This document shows, one piece after another, positions 1,078 to 42,344 of a DNA stretch of 64,000 bases (position 1 is the first letter of the stretch; every line of letters begins with the position of its first letter). A program made the position numbers and the translations under genes. The stretch lies in contig CAYVQF010000021.1 of assembly GCA_964454015.1 (NCBI GenBank), positions 13,890 through 77,889 on the forward strand. The letters run 5' to 3'. Source of the stretch: an uncultured Myxococcales bacterium (lineage in GTDB: Bacteria > Myxococcota_A > Bradymonadia > UBA4248). Below the pieces are notes generated by a model. It saw nothing but the letters and a program-made list of their open reading frames with translations, did no database searches and was not told where the DNA came from.

Positions 1078-3318
1078 ATGACAACGACCTCTCCTCTCTT
1101 GGCCAAATTTCACGCGTCGCGCCTGTGGGTGGTGGCCCACGCCGATAGCCTGCTCGCGGGTGCTCTGGCGGTGGCGGCCTTTGTCTTCTGCGTGCGCAAC
1201 CTGGTCTTTTTTTTCCCCCGCACCGTAGACGATCTCTTCATCTACCTGCGTTACGCCGAGAACTTCATCAGCGGCGCCGGCTTGGTCTACAACCCGGGCG
1301 AGTGGGTAGAGGGCTACTCCAGCGTCACCTGGCTGCTGGTGCTAGCGGCCATCATGGGCACCGGGCTGGATGGGGTCACGGCGACGAAGATCCTAGCGCT
1401 GGCCTCCACCCTGCTCATGGTGGTGGGTTTCTATCGCATCGGCCGCGGTGTCTTTGGGATGTCGCGGGCCTGGGCGATGGCCGCCGTGCTGCTGGTGAGC
1501 GTCAACAGTTATATCCTGTCATGGGCAGTCTATGGCTTGGAGACGCCGCTCTATCTCGCCTTGTTGTTGTGGTTCGGGCATCTGGTGCAGCGGGTCGCCG
1601 ATGGCGAAGGCGGCCGGCGGGCGCGCCTCGCCTTGGCGGTGGTCGGCGTGGCCTTGGCCCTGGTGCGCCCAGAAGCGCCACTGTTCATGGTGGCCGTGGG
1701 GCTCGGCTGCGTCCGCGTGCCGCAAGGGCGCGCGCCCCTGTGGCTGACCCTGCGGCGCTTGGCTGCGCCCGCCGCGGCGGTCATCGGCGGCTACGGTGCT
1801 TGGCTCCTCGTCCGTTTCCATTGTTACGGGCTGTGGGTTCCGCACACGTATTTCGCCAAGAAAGGGGAGGGCTTCACTTGGTCGAACCTCGCTCCTCTGT
1901 TCAGCAACGGCGCCGACGCATCAGAGATCGTCTGGTGGCCAGTGGTCTTCATTTGTGGCCTCGCCCTGGCGCTGCTGACGCGTCGCTTGCTCGCCCCCAT
2001 CCTCTTCGCCGTGGGTCTATTCTTCGTCGCCCGGGTGGAGATGGACTGGATGCCGAACATGCGCCATTTTTTGCCGCTGTGGTTGCTGGCGTCGCTGTGC
2101 CTGCCCGCCATGGCCCAGCGCCTGTCCCAATGGCACAGCGCGTCGCCGCTGTGGAAGAGCGCTGCTTGGAGCGCCAGCCTGACCCTGGTGCTCGTCGGGC
2201 TGTGGACCGGAGCGTGGCTCAATCAGTTGGACTCGCGCTTCTCTCCCTACGACTTCGAGACCCATGGGCGCAAGACGCAGTGGGTGCGGCAGAAAACACC
2301 CGAGTCGTGGGCGTCGTCCCTGGCCCTGCTGCAGCGCCGCGATCCGCCGGGCTATGAGAACGCTCACCCAGACCATTTGGGCTTGATTCAAGAGCTCTTT
2401 GTCGCCGTCGAGGCTTCCAGCCAACCCGAAGCGTCGAGCTGGTACTTGGGGCGCGACATCGGGATGGTGGGCTACTACTCCCCCATCCAAATTTATGACA
2501 CGGATGGTCTCTTCACACCGCGGGCCATCCAATACACGGGCGGACGCGATCGCTTGCCCATTGCCGACGCGGCCATCTTGGAGGCCTTCGACCCGGCCCC
2601 CGTGGCCGGCATGATCTTCTTCGAATGGGCCGCCGCCTTGGGGCGCAATCAACATCTCCTGAAGGACTACGAGATCCTCATCGGTTCATTGCCGCGGCCT
2701 CACCGCTTCATGCAGAAGGCGCATCCGCGCCCAGACGCCGCGCAGTTGGCGCAGCGCTACGCGCGCATCATGGCCAAGCTGCCGCCCCATTTTCACTTCG
2801 CCGAGCTCTACGGTAACCCCGCCAGCCCAGCCATCGCCTTGCGCGCCCGGGTCGTGCAGGAGCGCCTCCAGCTCACGGAGGAGGTCTTGGTCAGCGAAGC
2901 CTCGGTGCCGCGCTTCGCTGGCGACGGCCATGTCCTGGACCGGGCCATTCGCTTGGCGGGCTGCACGATCGCACAACCTTATTTGTCGGCGGGTGAGCAG
3001 ACGCTGTTATCCTGCTATTTCTATCGCGTTGGCCCCCTTTACCGATCCTACTGGGTCTTCGTCCACGGCGACGCCCACGGTCGCCGTTTGCTCCATGCCG
3101 ATCACCCGCTGGCGCACGACACGGTAGACCTGGCCACAGTGGCGATGGGACAAGCGGTGGTCAGCCGCCAATGGTTGCGTGTGCCCAACGACGCCCCACG
3201 CGGTGAGGTGCCCGTCTTCGTTGGTCTCTTCAGCCAGGATCACCGCGCTCAGGTACACCCTGAGGCCGGCACGGACGGTGACCATCGCATTCGGGTAGGC
3301 TCGCTGTGGGTCGAGTGA
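1078..3318 (+). CDS. Large polytopic membrane protein, possibly a GT-C-type glycosyltransferase
   Basis: ATG at 1078. The N-terminal ~400 aa have 10 or more hydrophobic helices with a YLRYAENF loop motif. A large soluble C-terminal domain follows. No precise family recognised. Confidence 0.4.
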   Translation: MTTTSPLLAKFHASRLWVVAHADSLLAGALAVAAFVFCVRNLVFFFPRTVDDLFIYLRYAENFISGAGLVYNPGEWVEGYSSVTWLLVLAAIMGTGLDGVTATKILALASTLLMVVGFYRIGRGVFGMSRAWAMAAVLLVSVNSYILSWAVYGLETPLYLALLLWFGHLVQRVADGEGGRRARLALAVVGVALALVRPEAPLFMVAVGLGCVRVPQGRAPLWLTLRRLAAPAAAVIGGYGAWLLVRFHCYGLWVPHTYFAKKGEGFTWSNLAPLFSNGADASEIVWWPVVFICGLALALLTRRLLAPILFAVGLFFVARVEMDWMPNMRHFLPLWLLASLCLPAMAQRLSQWHSASPLWKSAAWSASLTLVLVGLWTGAWLNQLDSRFSPYDFETHGRKTQWVRQKTPESWASSLALLQRRDPPGYENAHPDHLGLIQELFVAVEASSQPEASSWYLGRDIGMVGYYSPIQIYDTDGLFTPRAIQYTGGRDRLPIADAAILEAFDPAPVAGMIFFEWAAALGRNQHLLKDYEILIGSLPRPHRFMQKAHPRPDAAQLAQRYARIMAKLPPHFHFAELYGNPASPAIALRARVVQERLQLTEEVLVSEASVPRFAGDGHVLDRAIRLAGCTIAQPYLSAGEQTLLSCYFYRVGPLYRSYWVFVHGDAHGRRLLHADHPLAHDTVDLATVAMGQAVVSRQWLRVPNDAPRGEVPVFVGLFSQDHRAQVHPEAGTDGDHRIRVGSLWVE

Positions 3319-3560: not shown

Positions 3561-3836
3561 ATGAGCCTGGGATTGCGTGTCAAGCAGATTCGCGAGGAGC
3601 GGAACATCGACCAAGCCCTGCTCGCCCAGAGGGCAGGCATGAGCACGGCGACCTTGGCAGAGATCGAGGCGGGCCTGCGACACGTCAGCTCTGCCGAGAT
3701 CGAGTCCCTCTGCGTTGCGTTGGGAATTCGAGTCGACGTCCTCTTCACGGAGCGTCAGCCCCCCTCCCAAGACGAAAGCGTGCTCATCCCAGTGGACCAC
3801 CTGACGGCGCTCCTCGAGGAGATGAAGAAAGGCTAG
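3561..3836 (+). CDS. XRE-family helix-turn-helix transcriptional regulator
   Basis: LGLRVKQIREERNIDQALLAQRAGMSTATLAEIEAG is a typical HTH_3 motif. An ATG at 3561 is preferred over the GTG at 3516. Confidence 0.6.
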   Translation: MSLGLRVKQIREERNIDQALLAQRAGMSTATLAEIEAGLRHVSSAEIESLCVALGIRVDVLFTERQPPSQDESVLIPVDHLTALLEEMKKG

Positions 3837-5979: not shown

Positions 5980-6224
5980 TGCTCTTCCAGGGGGGAGTAG
6001 TCGAGAAAAGACGGGGCGATCCCACGGCAGGGCGCCACTTGGCCGAAAATAGCACGCCCCACTCGGGGTGGCCACTGCTGCCAGCGCAGCAAACGGCGAG
6101 GCGGCCACCCCACGGCCAGCGCAACCTTGCCCCCCGAGGCGAAGGCCGCTAGCGTAGCCCGCGGTCGAAGGTCCGTTCACCCCTACTCGCCGCTCCGGTG
6201 AGCAGAGCCAACGAAGACGCAGCG

Positions 6225-8060
6225 ATGGCATACCTGGTATTGGCCCGCAAGTGGCGGCCGCAGAGCTTCACAGATGTCGTGGGACAGGGACACGTCACCC
6301 AGACCTTGGCCAACGCCATCCGTCAGGGGCGCGTGGCCCACGCCTTCCTCTTCACGGGCTCCCGAGGGGTGGGCAAAACCTCGACGGCCCGCATCCTGGC
6401 CAAGGCCCTCAATTGCCAAGAGGGCCCGACGCCGACCCCCTGCAACCAGTGCACGGCCTGCGTCGACATCACCGACGGCCGCGCCGTGGACATCATCGAA
6501 ATCGACGGCGCCTCGAACCGCGGCATCAACGAAATCCGCGAGGTGCGGGAGGCCGTTCGCTACGCCCCGAGCCGCGAGCGCTACAAAGTCTACATCATCG
6601 ACGAGGTCCACATGCTGACCACGGAGGCCTTCAACGCCCTGTTGAAGACCCTCGAGGAGCCCCCCAGCCACGCGGTCTTCGTCTTCGCCACCACCGAACC
6701 CAACAAAATCCCCGTCACCATCTTGAGCCGCTGTCAGCGCTACGACTTCAAGCGCGTCACCGTGCGGGATCTCTGTGAACGCCTGCGCCACATCGCCGAC
6801 GCCGAGGGGATCGACTTCACCGACGAGGCCTTGACCCTTTTGGCGCGCCACGCCCGCGGGGGCGTGCGCGACGCGCTGAGCGCGATGGACCAGGTCATCG
6901 CCTTCGCCGAACCCCCCATCAGCGCCGAGTCCGCCGCTGAGACCTTGGGCATCGCCAGCCGGGAGACCCTTCACTCCCTCGGCGAGGCGCTGGTCAACCG
7001 CGACGTGGATCGGGCCTTGCGGGTCTTGGAGAAGGTCGACAGCTATGGCCAAGACTTGGGCCATTTCTCCGTCGATCTCCTGGAGCACCTGCGTGACATG
7101 ACCGTGGTGTGCGCCGTCGCCGACCCCCAGGGGCTCACCGAGCTGGGCGAGTCCGAGCTAGAGCGGGTCAAGGCCGCCGTCAAGAACGTCAGCATCGAGC
7201 GCCTCCAGCGCATGTTTCAGATCTGGTCCGAGGCGGTGGACCTGGTCGTTCGCTCGCTCTATCCCAAGCTGTTGATGGAGATGACCGTGGTCAAGATGGC
7301 CGCCGTCGCGCCCATGCCGCCCCTGCTGCCCTTGCTCAGCCGCCTGGAGGCGCTGGAGAAATCGCTCCACGGCGACCTGCCGCGTGAGCAGGACTTGCTG
7401 GCCAAGATGCGGAGCCACCTGGCGGCGTCCCTCCGGGACTATGCGCCGCTGGGGTCCAGCGGTGACGCTCTGCCGGCGCCCTCTGAGCCACCCCCGGGGG
7501 AAAAAAAAAAGCCTGAAGCGCTAGCCTCTCGCGTCAGCGCGCCGCCGTCACCCCCGCAGCCGCCCCCTGCCACCACGGCGGCCACGCCGCACGCCCCAAC
7601 GAAAGTGGAAGCCCAAGAGACGCGGGCAGGGGCGATGGCGACGGCGGAGGTGAGCCCAGCGGAGTCTGGCGATCCTTGGCGTTCGGCCCTGCGGCGCCTC
7701 TCGCCCAAGGTAGCTGGGGTGATGGAGCAGGCCGTGGTGGTGCGTCTCGAGCCGACGGCGTTGGAGCTGGCCTTGAGCGATGGCTTGCGCGGGCTGTTGG
7801 TGGAAGCGGATTTGGCGGCCCTGCTCGACAGCCTCGCCCTGGAGTTGGGCGCACGGCCGCGCCTGCGCTTCGTCGAAGCGGCCCCAGCGGCCACCTTGTC
7901 GCTGGCCGAAGAGCGACAGCAAGCGCGTGAGCAGCATCAGGAGGCCATGCGCGAACGTATCCGCACGCATCCCTTGTTGGGCGAAGCCATGACGCGTTTT
8001 GGCGTCGACGCGAGCAGCGTCCGCATCGATTTACATCTCTATGAGGAGGATGAAGGATGA
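6225..8060 (+). CDS. dnaX: DNA polymerase III subunit tau/gamma
   Basis: MAYLVLARKWRPQSF..., Walker A GSRGVGKTS, and zinc module CNQCTAC. The C-terminal half is Pro/Ala-rich and tau-specific. It contains an in-frame A_AAA_AAG slippery heptamer at 7505-7511. Confidence 0.92.
   Translation: MAYLVLARKWRPQSFTDVVGQGHVTQTLANAIRQGRVAHAFLFTGSRGVGKTSTARILAKALNCQEGPTPTPCNQCTACVDITDGRAVDIIEIDGASNRGINEIREVREAVRYAPSRERYKVYIIDEVHMLTTEAFNALLKTLEEPPSHAVFVFATTEPNKIPVTILSRCQRYDFKRVTVRDLCERLRHIADAEGIDFTDEALTLLARHARGGVRDALSAMDQVIAFAEPPISAESAAETLGIASRETLHSLGEALVNRDVDRALRVLEKVDSYGQDLGHFSVDLLEHLRDMTVVCAVADPQGLTELGESELERVKAAVKNVSIERLQRMFQIWSEAVDLVVRSLYPKLLMEMTVVKMAAVAPMPPLLPLLSRLEALEKSLHGDLPREQDLLAKMRSHLAASLRDYAPLGSSGDALPAPSEPPPGEKKKPEALASRVSAPPSPPQPPPATTAATPHAPTKVEAQETRAGAMATAEVSPAESGDPWRSALRRLSPKVAGVMEQAVVVRLEPTALELALSDGLRGLLVEADLAALLDSLALELGARPRLRFVEAAPAATLSLAEERQQAREQHQEAMRERIRTHPLLGEAMTRFGVDASSVRIDLHLYEEDEG
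7501..7516 (+). other. dnaX: Putative programmed -1 frameshift or transcriptional-slippage site in dnaX (A10 run followed by a -1-frame TGA)
   Basis: Sequence gggggAAAAAAAAAAGCCTGAagcg. The zero frame reads E-K-K-K-P-E. After a -1 slip on A_AAA_AAG the frame reads GCC TGA (Ala, stop). This would give a gamma-like product of about 439 aa. Confidence 0.6.
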
Positions 8061-8383
8061 AGAAGTCTAAAGGAACGGGACTCAATCAGATTTTGACCCA
8101 GGCCCAGCGTCTGCAGGGCAAGCTCGGCAGGCTGGAAGACGATCTCAAGTCGAAGATCGTCGAGGCCTCGGCGGGTAACGGCAAGGTGACGGCCGTGGTC
8201 AACGGCAACCGCGAGCTGTTGGCGCTGAGCATCGACCCGTCGGTGATCTCGGCCGACAACCCGGAGTTGCTGGAAAACCTGGTGGTCTCGGCGGTGAACA
8301 CCGCCTTGAGCAATATGCGCGAGATGGTGAACACGGAGATGAACAAGGTGACGGGCGGTTTTTCGATCCCCGGGCTGATGTAG
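8057..8383 (+). CDS. ybaB: Nucleoid-associated protein YbaB/EbfC
   Basis: 108 aa with the YbaB-family pattern (LQGKLGRLEDDLK...VTAVVNGN...). Its ATG overlaps the dnaX stop (ATGA). The dnaX-ybaB-recR order is conserved. Confidence 0.85.
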   Translation: MKKSKGTGLNQILTQAQRLQGKLGRLEDDLKSKIVEASAGNGKVTAVVNGNRELLALSIDPSVISADNPELLENLVVSAVNTALSNMREMVNTEMNKVTGGFSIPGLM

Positions 8384-8391
8384 GAGCCGCC

Positions 8392-8994
8392 GTGCACAGC
8401 GAGGGTGATCCCATCCAGCGCCTCATCGAGGCCCTGGCCCGCTTGCCGGGCATTGGGCGCAAGACGGCGACGCGGCTGGCTTTTTTTCTGCTCAACGCCG
8501 ACCCGGCCTATGCCCAGGAGCTGGCGGCGGCCGTGGTCGAGGTCAAGGCGCGCATTGGCTATTGCGAGGTGTGCGCCAACCTGTGCGAGGCGGCGCGTTG
8601 CCGGATCTGCGCCAGCACCAAGCGCGACCCGCAGGTGATCTGCGTGGTCGAGAGCCCGCAAGATCTGCTGGCGGTGGAAGCGACAGGTGACTTCGACGGG
8701 CTCTACCACGTGCTGCACGGGGTGATTTCGCCTCTGGATGGGGTGGGGCCGGACGATTTGAAGATCGCGGCTTTGCTGCAGCGGGTTCGGGAGACGGACT
8801 TACAAGAGGTGATTTTGGCGACCAACCCTTCCGTGGAAGGGGAGGCCACGGCGATCTACCTGCAGCGCCTCTTGGCGCCCTTGGGGCTCAAGGTGAGCCG
8901 CATCGCCAGCGGTCTGCCCATGGGCGCGCAGCTCGAGTATGCCGACAAGGCCACCCTGGGGCGCTCGCTCAAGGAAAGGCGCACCCTGCTCTGA
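8392..8994 (+). CDS. recR: Recombination protein RecR
   Basis: HhH motif LPGIGRKTATRLAFFLL, C4 zinc finger CEVCANLCEAARCRIC and a Toprim region. GTG start with an AGGAG RBS. Confidence 0.9.
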   Translation: MHSEGDPIQRLIEALARLPGIGRKTATRLAFFLLNADPAYAQELAAAVVEVKARIGYCEVCANLCEAARCRICASTKRDPQVICVVESPQDLLAVEATGDFDGLYHVLHGVISPLDGVGPDDLKIAALLQRVRETDLQEVILATNPSVEGEATAIYLQRLLAPLGLKVSRIASGLPMGAQLEYADKATLGRSLKERRTLL

Positions 8995-17112: not shown

Positions 17113-17185
17113 GCTGGTGTAGCTCAATTGGCAGAGCATCTGATTTGTAATCAGGAGGTTGGGGGTTCAAGTCCCTTCACCAGCA
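17113..17185 (+). tRNA. tRNA-Thr (anticodon TGT)
   Basis: Cloverleaf read manually. Acceptor GCTGGTG/CACCAGC, D-arm GCTC..GAGC, anticodon loop TTTGTAA, T-loop GGTTCAAGTCC. Confidence 0.8.
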
Positions 17186-17207
17186 TAGATCGTGGTCGTT
17201 TTTGCCT

Positions 17208-17289
17208 TGGAGGGGTGCCCGAGCGGTTAAAGGGGGCGGACTGTAAATCCGTTGGCAACGCCTACGAAGGTTCGAATCCTTCCCCCTCC
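17208..17289 (+). tRNA. tRNA-Tyr (anticodon GTA), long variable arm
   Basis: Acceptor GGAGGGG/CCCCTCC, anticodon loop CTGTAAA, long variable arm, T-loop GGTTCGAATCC. Confidence 0.8.
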
Positions 17290-17350
17290 ATTTTAAGATG
17301 ATGACGCGACGCGTGCATCGCCACGCGTCGCGGGATCATCTTTTGTTTAT

Positions 17351-17423
17351 GCGGGAGTAGCTCAGTTGGTAGAGCATCAGCCTTCCAAGCTGAGGGTCGC
17401 GGGTTCGAACCCCGTCTCCCGCT
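17351..17423 (+). tRNA. tRNA-Gly (anticodon TCC)
   Basis: Acceptor GCGGGAG/CTCCCGC, anticodon loop CTTCCAA, T-loop GGTTCGAACCC. Confidence 0.8.
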
Positions 17424-17478
17424 CTTCCACGACATCCGACGGGCGCTTGCAGAGCGCCATCGCCGTTTCGAGTGGGGT

Positions 17479-17551
<73 letters not shown>

Positions 17552-18921: not shown

Positions 18922-18965
18922 TTGTGTCTTGGGTCGTCGCGGCGTTCTGCGCCACGACGACCCCT

Positions 18966-19038
18966 AGGGGTGTAGCTCAGTTGGTAGAGCAACGGCCTCC
19001 AAAGCCGTGGGCCGGGGGTTCGAGTCCCTCCACCCCTG
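18966..19038 (+). tRNA. tRNA-Trp (anticodon CCA)
   Basis: Acceptor AGGGGTG/CACCCCT, anticodon loop CCTCCAAAG, T-loop GGTTCGAGTCC. Conserved position between tuf and secE. Confidence 0.8.
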
Positions 19039-19077
19039 TCTCGGCCATCTTTCTTGGCCGGAGATGAGGATTGCGCG

Positions 19078-27795: not shown

Positions 27796-31902
<4,107 letters not shown>

Positions 31903-31925
31903 GACTCCGCCCCCAAGCCACGCCG

Positions 31926-31954
31926 AGGCCGCCTCCATGCGGCCCTTTTTTTTT
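31926..31954 (+). terminator. Rho-independent terminator after rpoC
   Basis: Stem GGCCGC / GCGGCC with loop CTCCAT, followed by a T9 run. Confidence 0.7.
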
Positions 31955-40370: not shown

Positions 40371-42344
40371 ATGCGCGCACTGTCCACGCCCCCCCCAGTC
40401 CCCCCTAGACCACGCTTCAACCTGCTGTGGCTACTCATCATCCTTGGGGTTTACGCGTTGTTTTCCGCTTCCGGATGCCGCATGCTGGATCGGCTGATGG
40501 GCAACACCGGCGCCCCGTGCAGCACGGACGACAACTGCGCCACGGGCTTGGTGTGTCTGACCGAGTTCCCAGGGGGCTACTGCTCCATGCAGACCTGCTC
40601 CCAGGGTGGCTGCCCTGGCATGTATGCCACCTGTGCCATGTTGGATGCTTCCCGCAATGTCACGGCGTGCGTGGAGGGGTGCAACTCCAACATCGACTGC
40701 AGGCAGGGCGAAGGCTACGTCTGCGCCGATCTCGACGGGTCGCGCGGCTGTATGCCGGCGCAGCAATCCACGGGTAGTGCCGGCGAGATCGGCTCGAGCT
40801 GCACCCGTGACAGCGATTGTTCAGGCGACCTGACCTGCCTCACGAACTTCGTCTTTGGCTATTGCTCCCGCGCCTGCTCCAGCCACAACGACTGCGGTAG
40901 CGACGGCCGCTGCATCAACCAGGGTGGCGATGTGATGCGCTGTATGCGGGCGTGCCAGAACAACAGCCAGTGCCGCTTCTCCTATGCCTGCCAGCAGGTG
41001 GACGGGCAGAATGTGTGTGATGCCGATGATTCGTCTACAGCGGTACGCAACCCCAACGGCACCCCGGACGGCCAGGGCTGTACGGTGGACGTGGCCTGTG
41101 TGGGCGGTACCTGCATCACCGGGACGGACTTCCCCGGCGGTTATTGTACGACCCGCAGTTGCGACGTCGTGGGCTGCTCCGACGCCAACTCGGTCTGCGT
41201 CGGTTTGGAACGCGAGGCGCTGTGCTTCGTTCGCTGTGAAGATAGCGCACAGTGTCGTGAGGGCTACCGCTGCACCTCACTGGATACGGGCGAGAAGGTG
41301 TGCTACGCCCTGTCCCCGATCCGGGCACCGGAGATCGAGGGCGGGGCTATCGAGATCCGCTGTGATGCCACCTCGTCCGGGCGGGTGCGCACGGCGACCT
41401 TCGAGTTGCCGGCAGGGAGCGTGGGCTTTGCCATCGTGCCCTTCAGCCCCGCCAACAGCGAGGTGACCCCGCTGCGCCTGCGCGCGCCCGACGGTTCGGT
41501 GCTCAACTTTGCTCAAGACTATAGTTTCCAGACGATCAACTCGCTGCTCTTGGGGACCATCGTCCCGATGTCATTCCCGGGCGCACCGGCCTTCGAACGC
41601 TTCATCCAGGCGGGTACCTATCGCTTCGAATACGAGACGGATGACGCCAGCTCTTGCTACTTCGTGGTGCCCCAGGCTTCCGTGGGTCGGCAGCTCGATC
41701 TGAACTTCTACTTCGTCGGCGTTCCTGGCCTCAACGCGGGCAACGCGGCGAGCCACACCCAGTTCCAAGCGACCATGCAGGAGGTGCGGACCATTTTCAA
41801 CAACGCGTCCATCACGATCGGCACGGTGCGGACCTTCGACATCAGCGGCGACAACGCCACCCGCTACAGCATGATCCGGGATTTCAGCGACATTTACCGT
41901 CTCCTCGCCCTGAGCAGCGCCCCGGGCCCGAGCCGCGATGAAGCGCTGAGTCTCAATGTCTTTCTCATCAACGATTTCAACATCGCCGGCCTGCCTGGTC
42001 TCTTGGGTTTGTCAGCAGGGATCCCTGGGGTACCGGGCGTCCATGGCAATGGCGGCGCCGGACTGGTTTTCAGCAGCGTCAACTTGCGCGATGCCCCCAC
42101 CGCCCTGGGACAGACCTTGGCACACGAGGCGGGTCACTTCTTGGGCCTGCGGCACACGAGCGAGCGCGGCGGCACGGAGTTCGATCCTTTGGATGACACG
42201 CCGCGCTGCAACAACCCGGAGAACCCCTACTCCTGCCCCGACGTGAACAACTTGATGTTCCCCTTCAGCGTCGACGTCGAGCAGCGTCAGATCACGACCA
42301 ACCAACGTTTCGTCATTCAGCGCAACCCACTGGTCAAGCCTTAG
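40371..42344 (+). CDS. Lipoprotein metzincin metalloprotease with about seven N-terminal myxococcus-type cysteine-rich repeats
   Basis: Lipobox LFSASGC. Repeats follow the pattern C-x-DxDC-x-G-x-C...(F)PGGYC...C. The C-terminus has HEAGHFLGLRH (HExxHxxGxxH zinc site). Confidence 0.75.
   Translation: MRALSTPPPVPPRPRFNLLWLLIILGVYALFSASGCRMLDRLMGNTGAPCSTDDNCATGLVCLTEFPGGYCSMQTCSQGGCPGMYATCAMLDASRNVTACVEGCNSNIDCRQGEGYVCADLDGSRGCMPAQQSTGSAGEIGSSCTRDSDCSGDLTCLTNFVFGYCSRACSSHNDCGSDGRCINQGGDVMRCMRACQNNSQCRFSYACQQVDGQNVCDADDSSTAVRNPNGTPDGQGCTVDVACVGGTCITGTDFPGGYCTTRSCDVVGCSDANSVCVGLEREALCFVRCEDSAQCREGYRCTSLDTGEKVCYALSPIRAPEIEGGAIEIRCDATSSGRVRTATFELPAGSVGFAIVPFSPANSEVTPLRLRAPDGSVLNFAQDYSFQTINSLLLGTIVPMSFPGAPAFERFIQAGTYRFEYETDDASSCYFVVPQASVGRQLDLNFYFVGVPGLNAGNAASHTQFQATMQEVRTIFNNASITIGTVRTFDISGDNATRYSMIRDFSDIYRLLALSSAPGPSRDEALSLNVFLINDFNIAGLPGLLGLSAGIPGVPGVHGNGGAGLVFSSVNLRDAPTALGQTLAHEAGHFLGLRHTSERGGTEFDPLDDTPRCNNPENPYSCPDVNNLMFPFSVDVEQRQITTNQRFVIQRNPLVKP

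Follow-up and report, generated by a model that had tools for sequence, protein, structure and literature searches.

Does the dnaX gene of an uncultured bacterium, which encodes the tau protein of DNA polymerase III, also give rise to a shorter, gamma-like protein? The question is raised by a run of ten A's (A10) within dnaX on the stretch of DNA analyzed here (64,000 nucleotides [nt] of contig CAYVQF010000021.1; hereafter, the window). The window has a GC content of ~65%, and its host is an uncultured lineage of ~65% GC near metagenome-assembled genomes (MAGs) of Myxococcota/Bradymonadales. An earlier note on this DNA interpreted the run as a tau/gamma recoding signature, naming ribosomal frameshifting as in Escherichia coli first and transcriptional slippage as in Thermus second. 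Our analysis suggests that A10 is a programmed tau/gamma recoding site working mainly by Thermus-type transcriptional slippage, and we give this reading a probability of about 0.6. That dnaX is recoded at all is well supported by the position of the run, the codon choice, the off-frame stops, and the comparison with relatives, and slippage, the mechanism named second, appears more likely than E. coli-like frameshifting.

The gene and the proposed site comprise the following elements.

6225..8060, + strand: dnaX, DNA polymerase III tau, 611 amino acids (aa), from the open reading frame (ORF) and Pfam
7501..7510, + strand: A10 homopolymer, proposed RNA polymerase slippage site, read from the sequence
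7505..7511, + strand: A_AAA_AAG heptamer in X_XXY_YYZ phase, a possible secondary site of ribosomal -1 frameshifting
7514..7516, + strand: TGA, which closes the -1 frame one codon (GCC) past the run; the product would end in ...GEKKKA (430 aa)
7522..7524, + strand: TAG, which closes the +1 frame four codons past the run; the product would end in ...GEKK(K)SLKR

The sequence around the run is ...CCCCCGGGGG AAAAAAAAAA GCCTGAAGCGCTAG..., and positions 7495-7524 of the window correspond to CCCGGGGG-A10-GCCTGAAGCGCTAG. Position 7500 is a first codon position, and the zero frame reads GAA AAA AAA AAG CCT GAA (E-K-K-K-P-E). This frame stays open for 183 codons past A10, so that tau is encoded without interruption by a single ORF. 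The run, the zero-frame peptide, the in-phase heptamer, and GCC TGA in the -1 frame had all been described in the earlier note and were confirmed. The +1-frame stop, reached through AGC CTG AAG CGC TAG, had not been mentioned there.

Stops close by in both nonzero frames are a hallmark of Thermus dnaX (PMC5009743, PMC1088944), and approximately nine A's or T's is the length of efficient slippage, which is counter-selected in many bacterial coding regions (PMC1088944). The window dnaX shows the features of this type: a run of about nine or more A's in the sense strand, an intact tau frame, both off-frames closed nearby, and a site located after domains I-III. The run encodes DnaX residues 426-429, while the Pfam match to domain III ends at residue 372; it is located in the linker before the tau-only C-terminal domain, 50 codons downstream of where the alignment of the conserved N-terminal region ends.

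6225..7340, + strand: domains I-III (ATPase, lid, collar), kept in the gamma-like product; Pfam matches over residues 21-372
Residues 21-178: DNA_pol3_delta2 (Pfam)
Residues 184-228: DNAX_ATPase_lid (Pfam)
Residues 232-372: DNA_pol3_gamma3, gamma/tau domain III (Pfam)
7512..8057, + strand: tau-only part, Pro/Ala-rich linker and C-terminal domain, lost in the short product
Residues 499-592: DUF3646, gamma/tau C-terminal family, weak match (Pfam)

The C-terminal part of the window tau is homologous to the C-terminal parts of its relatives, including the second ORFs of relatives in which dnaX is split into two ORFs (blastp E values of 1e-13 to 4e-5).

The sizes of the products depend on the start codon. 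An alternative start, GTG at 6198 on the + strand, would yield a 620-codon ORF (6198-8060), but the true start is probably ATG at 6225. The N terminus of the ATG-6225 form, MAYLVLARKWRPQ, aligns with all homologues beginning at residue 1, and the exact 611-aa DnaX is on record in NCBI, JGI, and ENA, whereas the 620-aa form is absent from these records. Tau is therefore taken to have 611 aa. The earlier note had given 439 aa for gamma and 620 aa for tau, nine residues too many in each case because GTG 6198 was chosen as start; the values are corrected to 430 and 611, and the proportion stays near that of E. coli (431/643), as the note had said.

A10 is the only A-run of at least 7 in the window. 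For A8 matches on both strands, shuffles predicted 0.12 per window; six were observed, at three sites, and none of 100 shuffles reached this number. As a reference for codon usage and off-frame stops, we used the 23 ORFs of the window with a high GC content at third codon positions (12,651 codon boundaries). In this set, the median distances to an off-frame stop were 44 and 35 codons, and a -1 stop within one codon combined with a +1 stop within four codons had a probability of 0.0016. The null value for such off-frame closure inside dnaX itself was 0.011. In the same ORFs, Lys is encoded by AAG (71%) rather than AAA (29%) and Glu by GAG (73%) rather than GAA (27%), and CCT accounts for 11% of the Pro codons. 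By these shares, GAA-AAA-AAA-AAG-CCT is built largely from minority codons, and it is the minority codon CCT that creates the TGA in the -1 frame. We conclude that the maintenance of A10 despite a strong GC bias (~65-68%) provides clear evidence that selection acts on the nucleotides.

Relatives of the window dnaX provided a second line of evidence. Their DNA was obtained by protein search and exact-sequence contig look-ups, except that one locus (L084; L-numbers label the compared dnaX loci or contigs) came from a metagenome scan. In genome and metagenome scans, matches to the conserved ATPase motif prevailed, and most of the sequences recovered had ~50% identity or less. No close relative was found among species-representative genomes, the best being ~50% identical, but a large protein database gave DnaX relatives with 62-72% identity over domains I-III; those with a named source are annotated as MAGs of Myxococcota, Bradymonadales, or "Proteobacteria". 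A neighbour-joining tree of domains I-III grouped the window with L082 and L083, and the sister group of this trio was a clade with eight sampled lineages, whose DnaX proteins are 62-66% identical to that of the window.

All eight sister-clade lineages have the A-run (A10 in seven, A12 in one) at residues 404-427, although the linker around it is otherwise unalignable and variable in length. The clade contains both one-ORF and two-ORF genes.

One-ORF relatives (L084, L174/175, L176, L165-167): the zero frame encodes tau; the -1 frame closes after 1 codon and the +1 frame after 3
Two-ORF A10 relatives (L168; L169/170/171; L172/173): the zero frame closes after 1-8 codons and the +1 frame after 1-5; the -1 frame is open for 258-313 codons
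Two-ORF A12 relative (L164): the open frame is +1 (234 codons)
Run positions in the split genes: L168, 2399-2408; L169, 3298-3307 (also L170 and L171); L172, 3711-3720 (also L173); L164, 1410-1421

The nucleotide motif GAAAAAAAAAAGCCTGA is shared by the window, L084, and L174 despite 63% protein identity and 48% GC, and the run context in L174/175, GAAAAAAAAAAGCCTGATTTAA, is the same 17-nt motif as in the window. A run length of 10 is maintained across genomes of 45-68% GC. When the null was calculated within each gene, the chance that two of the three frames close this fast was at most 0.017 in eight of the nine lineages (the window and the sister clade).

The two-ORF genes are particularly telling. 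Their open alternative frames are homologous to the C terminus of the window tau (blastp E values of 1e-9 to 4e-5) and end in the same F-x-V-[DN]-P-x-x-[IV]-R-F motif. Gene callers split these loci into a ~410-aa "gamma" and an orphan ORF without a Pfam match. Because the tau C terminus lies in the other frame, a frame change at the run, where no stimulator is visible, is required to make tau, and since tau is taken to be essential, this implies an efficient event that is independent of stimulators. The forms with A10 were reproduced in three independent assemblies (L169/170/171) and in two sequencing runs (L172/173). For two-ORF dnaX with A10, in which tau arises by recoding, slippage was the mechanism proposed by Antonov et al. 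in 2013 (PMC3711429), and such a role reversal is expected where slippage efficiency is near 50% (PMC5009743). The window shares the A10 and its place with these genes, an architecture present in the sister-clade loci L168, L169-171, L172-173, and L164, but is itself a one-ORF gene, in which the zero frame would lead to tau and the shifted frames to a short product.

In the proposed mechanism, the hybrid formed over the run would consist of rA:dT pairs only, so that RNA polymerase could realign and add or drop A's, giving mRNAs with A9, A10, A11, A12, and so on. The A10 mRNA would encode tau (611 aa), and A13 or A7 mRNAs would encode tau with one Lys more or fewer. From A11 mRNA, a protein ending in ...PPGEKKKA (430 aa) would result, the same product as from a ribosomal -1 shift, which may add to this pool on the in-phase A_AAA_AAG. 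The A9 and A12 mRNAs would specify ...PPGEKKSLKR (432 aa) and ...PPGEKKKSLKR (433 aa), respectively. All these short forms (430-433 aa, counted from ATG 6225) would retain domains I-III but lack both the linker and the C-terminal domain. In E. coli, the tau-only parts carry the contacts with the DnaB helicase and the alpha subunit of Pol III, which we extend to the window protein by analogy. We infer the occurrence of slippage, its efficiency, and the making and use of the short protein from these features of the locus. Annotation pipelines call only tau at the window dnaX, which would be incomplete if recoding occurs.

Compared to Thermus thermophilus dnaX (Larsen et al. 2000, PNAS 97:1683, as summarized in PMC1088944 and PMC5009743), the window gene likewise encodes tau in a single ORF, has a long sense-strand A-run past the clamp-loader core and near stops in both off-frames, and shows no evident dedicated RNA stimulators. 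It differs in having A10 instead of A9 and in that its run ends in an in-phase A_AAA_AAG; moreover, slippage in the window is a prediction.

The strongest competing explanation assigns the main role to programmed -1 ribosomal frameshifting of the E. coli type, in which tRNA-Lys would slip on A_AAA_AAG and translation would end after GCC at TGA, yielding only ...GEKKKA. We consider this unlikely. The heptamer is the one used in E. coli dnaX, in the same phase, the -1 stop follows one codon later in both genes, and the expected gamma would lack the tau-only C-terminal domains in both. A weak hairpin also begins 6 nt downstream of the heptamer, and in E. coli cell-free systems, the bare dnaX heptamer is sufficient for frameshifting at 14-16% (bioRxiv 10.1101/2025.10.02.679949). 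E. coli dnaX, however, has A6 before the G, an AGGGAG element 10 nt upstream, and a stable hairpin, whereas the window has A10, a near +1 stop, and only the following candidates for stimulatory elements.

7496..7500, + strand: G5 abutting the run, Shine-Dalgarno (SD)-like, 4 nt before the heptamer
7518..7540, + strand: weak 5-bp hairpin (7518-7522 paired with 7536-7540), starting 6 nt past the heptamer

These candidates were assessed against the E. coli dnaX site, which served as positive control for the Rfam and folding tests. The E. coli control matched the dnaX family RF00382 with 96.8 bits (E value of 1.4e-21), while region 6000-8400 of the window gave no match to this family at an E value of up to 10, and only chance-level matches to unrelated families. 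In a 35-nt folding test, the E. coli hairpin reached -19.1 kcal/mol (z = -2.06; 91% of the ensemble). The window hairpin, which the earlier note had proposed as a GCGC...GCGC stem, reached -8.6 kcal/mol (z = +0.67; 16% of the ensemble); it was weaker than the shuffle mean, and 146 of 200 shuffles folded at least as well, so the stem does not exceed chance. None of the folds computed for 35, 60, or 69 nt past the run rose above shuffle level. As evidence on stimulators, we relied solely on Rfam and the 35-nt test; the 60-nt test has no power, since the E. coli control also fails it (z = +0.53).

No 3' stem is shared among the relatives, whose folds range from -0.8 to -9.6 kcal/mol, not even between L084 and L174. 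Upstream of the run, region 7451-7500 folds worse than shuffles (z = +1.9) and contains no abutting hairpin of the kind present at some insertion sequence (IS)-element slippage sites. The SD-like G5 is misplaced, lying 4 nt before the heptamer, while the E. coli AGGGAG ends 10 nt before its heptamer, and no SD-like element was found in the 15 nt upstream of the run in the relatives. AAG is the majority Lys codon in the window (71%), and genomes of this kind usually carry tRNA-Lys(CUU), which lowers shiftiness on AAG. At the gathering threshold, Rfam detected only five tRNAs in the whole window, among them no tRNA-Lys gene; they form a cluster Thr(TGT)-Tyr(GTA)-Gly(TCC)-Thr(GGT) at 17113-17551, followed by Trp(CCA) at 18965-19040.

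Two further observations are difficult to reconcile with ribosomal frameshifting as the main route. Seven bases would be sufficient for it, yet the run is kept at 10 in genomes of widely different GC content, and the conserved near stop in the +1 frame plays no part in -1 shifting. In summary, slippage is favored because the run is A10 and not A6, because both off-frames close nearby, because the relatives include two-ORF forms, and because an RF00382 match, a stable or conserved 3' hairpin, and an upstream abutting hairpin are all missing. Of the E. coli-like signature in the earlier note, the heptamer and the -1 stop thus held but the stem did not; in our tests, the Rfam family and the position of the SD-like element also failed to agree with E. 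coli.

Several points weigh against slippage as the main mechanism, or against the importance of the site. The heptamer is in phase, its -1 stop lies one codon on as in E. coli (this distance is found in all one-ORF lineages), and the G after the run is kept in four of the five one-ORF lineages. Together with the 14-16% shifting on the bare heptamer, the phase and the kept G mean that the two mechanisms cannot be apportioned from the nucleotide sequence. Moreover, the closest relatives, L082 (803-2851) and L083 (3001-5064), whose DnaX proteins are 72% identical to that of the window over domains I-III, have no A-run of at least 5 and no convincing heptamer. A search of the corresponding zone for a substitute signal revealed no homopolymer of at least 6 and only heptamers of the CCC_TTT_C/CCC_AAA_G type, with -1 stops 8-9 codons off. 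This lineage can therefore do without the site. A comparison of orthologs for the A-run and the -1 stop had been suggested in the earlier note as a check; in our set, the sister clade has A10 or A12 throughout and -1 stops in its one-ORF genes, and the two closest relatives lack the run. In the simplest history, an ancestral A10 was kept in the window and lost on the L082/L083 branch; alternatively, the window A10 may be a convergent gain.

A broader extension of the preferred reading is possible but rather unlikely. In the one-ORF members of the lineage, the ten bases could act as a dual-level signal, with slippage and ribosomal -1 shifting both feeding gamma; around the fixed run, the lineage would have switched repeatedly as to which product, gamma or tau, depends on recoding, and one-ORF dnaX genes with an A-run would be far more widespread than documented.

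A second alternative, which we regard as quite improbable, dispenses with recoding. The run would merely encode a Lys-rich patch (EKKK) in a disordered linker, where slippage is tolerated noise. In line with this, the linker is variable and of low complexity, and L082 and L083 manage without the run. A Lys patch, however, should use AAG, not GAA-AAA-AAA followed by a rare CCT, and stops so near in both off-frames are rare (0.0016). Furthermore, GAAAAAAAAAAGCCTGA recurs in L084 and L174 at the identity and GC content given above, and a change of frame is indispensable for tau in the two-ORF relatives.

A patch of this kind also does not explain the positional enrichment of A-runs across phyla. 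We examined 150 non-redundant dnaX loci, and in 29 of them at least nine consecutive A's occur within the 85 codons that follow domain III. The density of such runs is 0.76 per kb in this zone; outside it, these loci have 0.0078 per kb on each strand, which corresponds to a ~100-fold enrichment. When the eight hand-picked loci were omitted, 21 of 142 remained, from many phyla; according to record titles, the hosts include Bacteroidota, Ignavibacteriota, Planctomycetota, Leptospira, Fibrobacteria, Bdellovibrionales, and Desulfobacteraceae. Both other frames are usually closed at the distant A10/A11 loci, while some A9 loci have only a -1 stop near. These data provide a hint that A-run dnaX sites are commoner than the literature lists.

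Other arrangements were also seen among these loci. In L054, L072, L121, and L140, which have A9 just past domain III, the -1 frame closes in 2-5 codons and the +1 frame is open for 13-110; instead of the both-frames design, such genes may use the insertion of a single A or ribosomal -1 frameshifting. Three loci have A10 far into dnaX (138-198 codons past domain III) with a -1 stop 1-3 codons on: L005 (1820-1829; a Trichlorobacter MAG, with the run context GAAAAAAAAAAGCATGA, for example), L017 (4698-4707; a Nitrospirales MAG), and L014 (4542-4551). Among near-identical metagenome loci, L156 and L158 have A9 (3746-3754) and L157 has A10 (3745-3754) with the frame unchanged. The L157 run is lengthened by a T-to-A substitution, and run length here is drifting by substitution, not by insertion or deletion.

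It is very improbable that the run is a hypermutable DNA tract, changing by replication slippage in a phase-variation-like manner, or a homopolymer error of sequencing or assembly. Long homopolymers are prone to replication slippage, and both the length and the frame of the run differ among the relatives (one-ORF with A10, two-ORF with A10, and A12). However, the run is identical, with no mismatch, in four further contigs from three other samples, represented by L081, L177, and L178; an artefact was therefore ruled out. The contigs ENA ERZ27252302, ENA ERZ27252305, and JGI 3300033177 match the window exactly over 3.1-4.8 kb including A10, and two of the three are k141 short-read assemblies; the exact DnaX protein is carried by six contigs in all. 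The two-ORF forms were likewise reproduced, across three and two independent assemblies. Finally, an on/off switch makes no sense in this gene, since switching off tau, taken to be essential, would be lethal.

The least probable explanation is that a gamma-like form, if any, arises by partial proteolysis of tau, as with ClpXP in Caulobacter crescentus, and that the A-run is irrelevant: this documented third route has the same outcome (tau and a shorter gamma from one gene), and L082 and L083, which make either no gamma or gamma by another route such as proteolysis, would need it if they make gamma, but the route is post-translational and without a nucleotide signal, nothing in the window points to it, and it leaves the nucleotide-level signals unexplained.

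Downstream of dnaX, the genes follow the usual dnaX-ybaB-recR order.

8057..8383, + strand: ybaB/ebfC, its start overlapping the dnaX stop (ATGA, 8057-8060)
8392..8994, + strand: recR

A strong GAGGAGG lies 7 nt upstream of the ATGA overlap (8044-8060). This arrangement suggests that ybaB translation is coupled to the translation of full-length tau. Ribosomes ending early at the gamma stops would not reach the ybaB start.

Two other long homopolymers of the window, considered as further candidates for slippage, were judged ordinary. A T9 at 31946 (31920-31954) is preceded by a GC-rich inverted repeat, GGCCGC...GCGGCC, and lies ~20-50 nt past the TAG stop (31900-31902) of a + strand ORF of 1,368 aa (27796-31902); it looks like an intrinsic terminator and was rejected as a slippage site. 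The second is a T8 at 1207-1214, which is in frame (TTT TTT TTC, Phe-Phe-Phe), lies early in an ORF of 746 aa (1078-3318), and is one base below the usual slippage-prone length. The longest G/C run of the window is a C8 at 40389-40396.

The window dnaX adds a poorly sampled GC-rich lineage to a recoding known since 1990 in E. coli, since 2000 in Thermus, and since 2013 in two-ORF genes with A10. The added value is modest and consists of the selection signal against GC bias, the one-ORF/two-ORF series, and the hint of commoner sites. Annotations of such genes are incomplete in both directions, listing tau only in the window, and a truncated "gamma" with an orphan ORF in the two-ORF relatives. 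The relatives form a natural series (one-ORF genes, two-ORF genes with tau in -1, an A12 gene with tau in +1, and genes that lost the run) in which slippage efficiency can be related to gene architecture. Why bacteria keep two DnaX forms has not been clarified in the more than 30 years since these were discovered, and each independent lineage that maintains the tau/gamma split strengthens the case that gamma matters.

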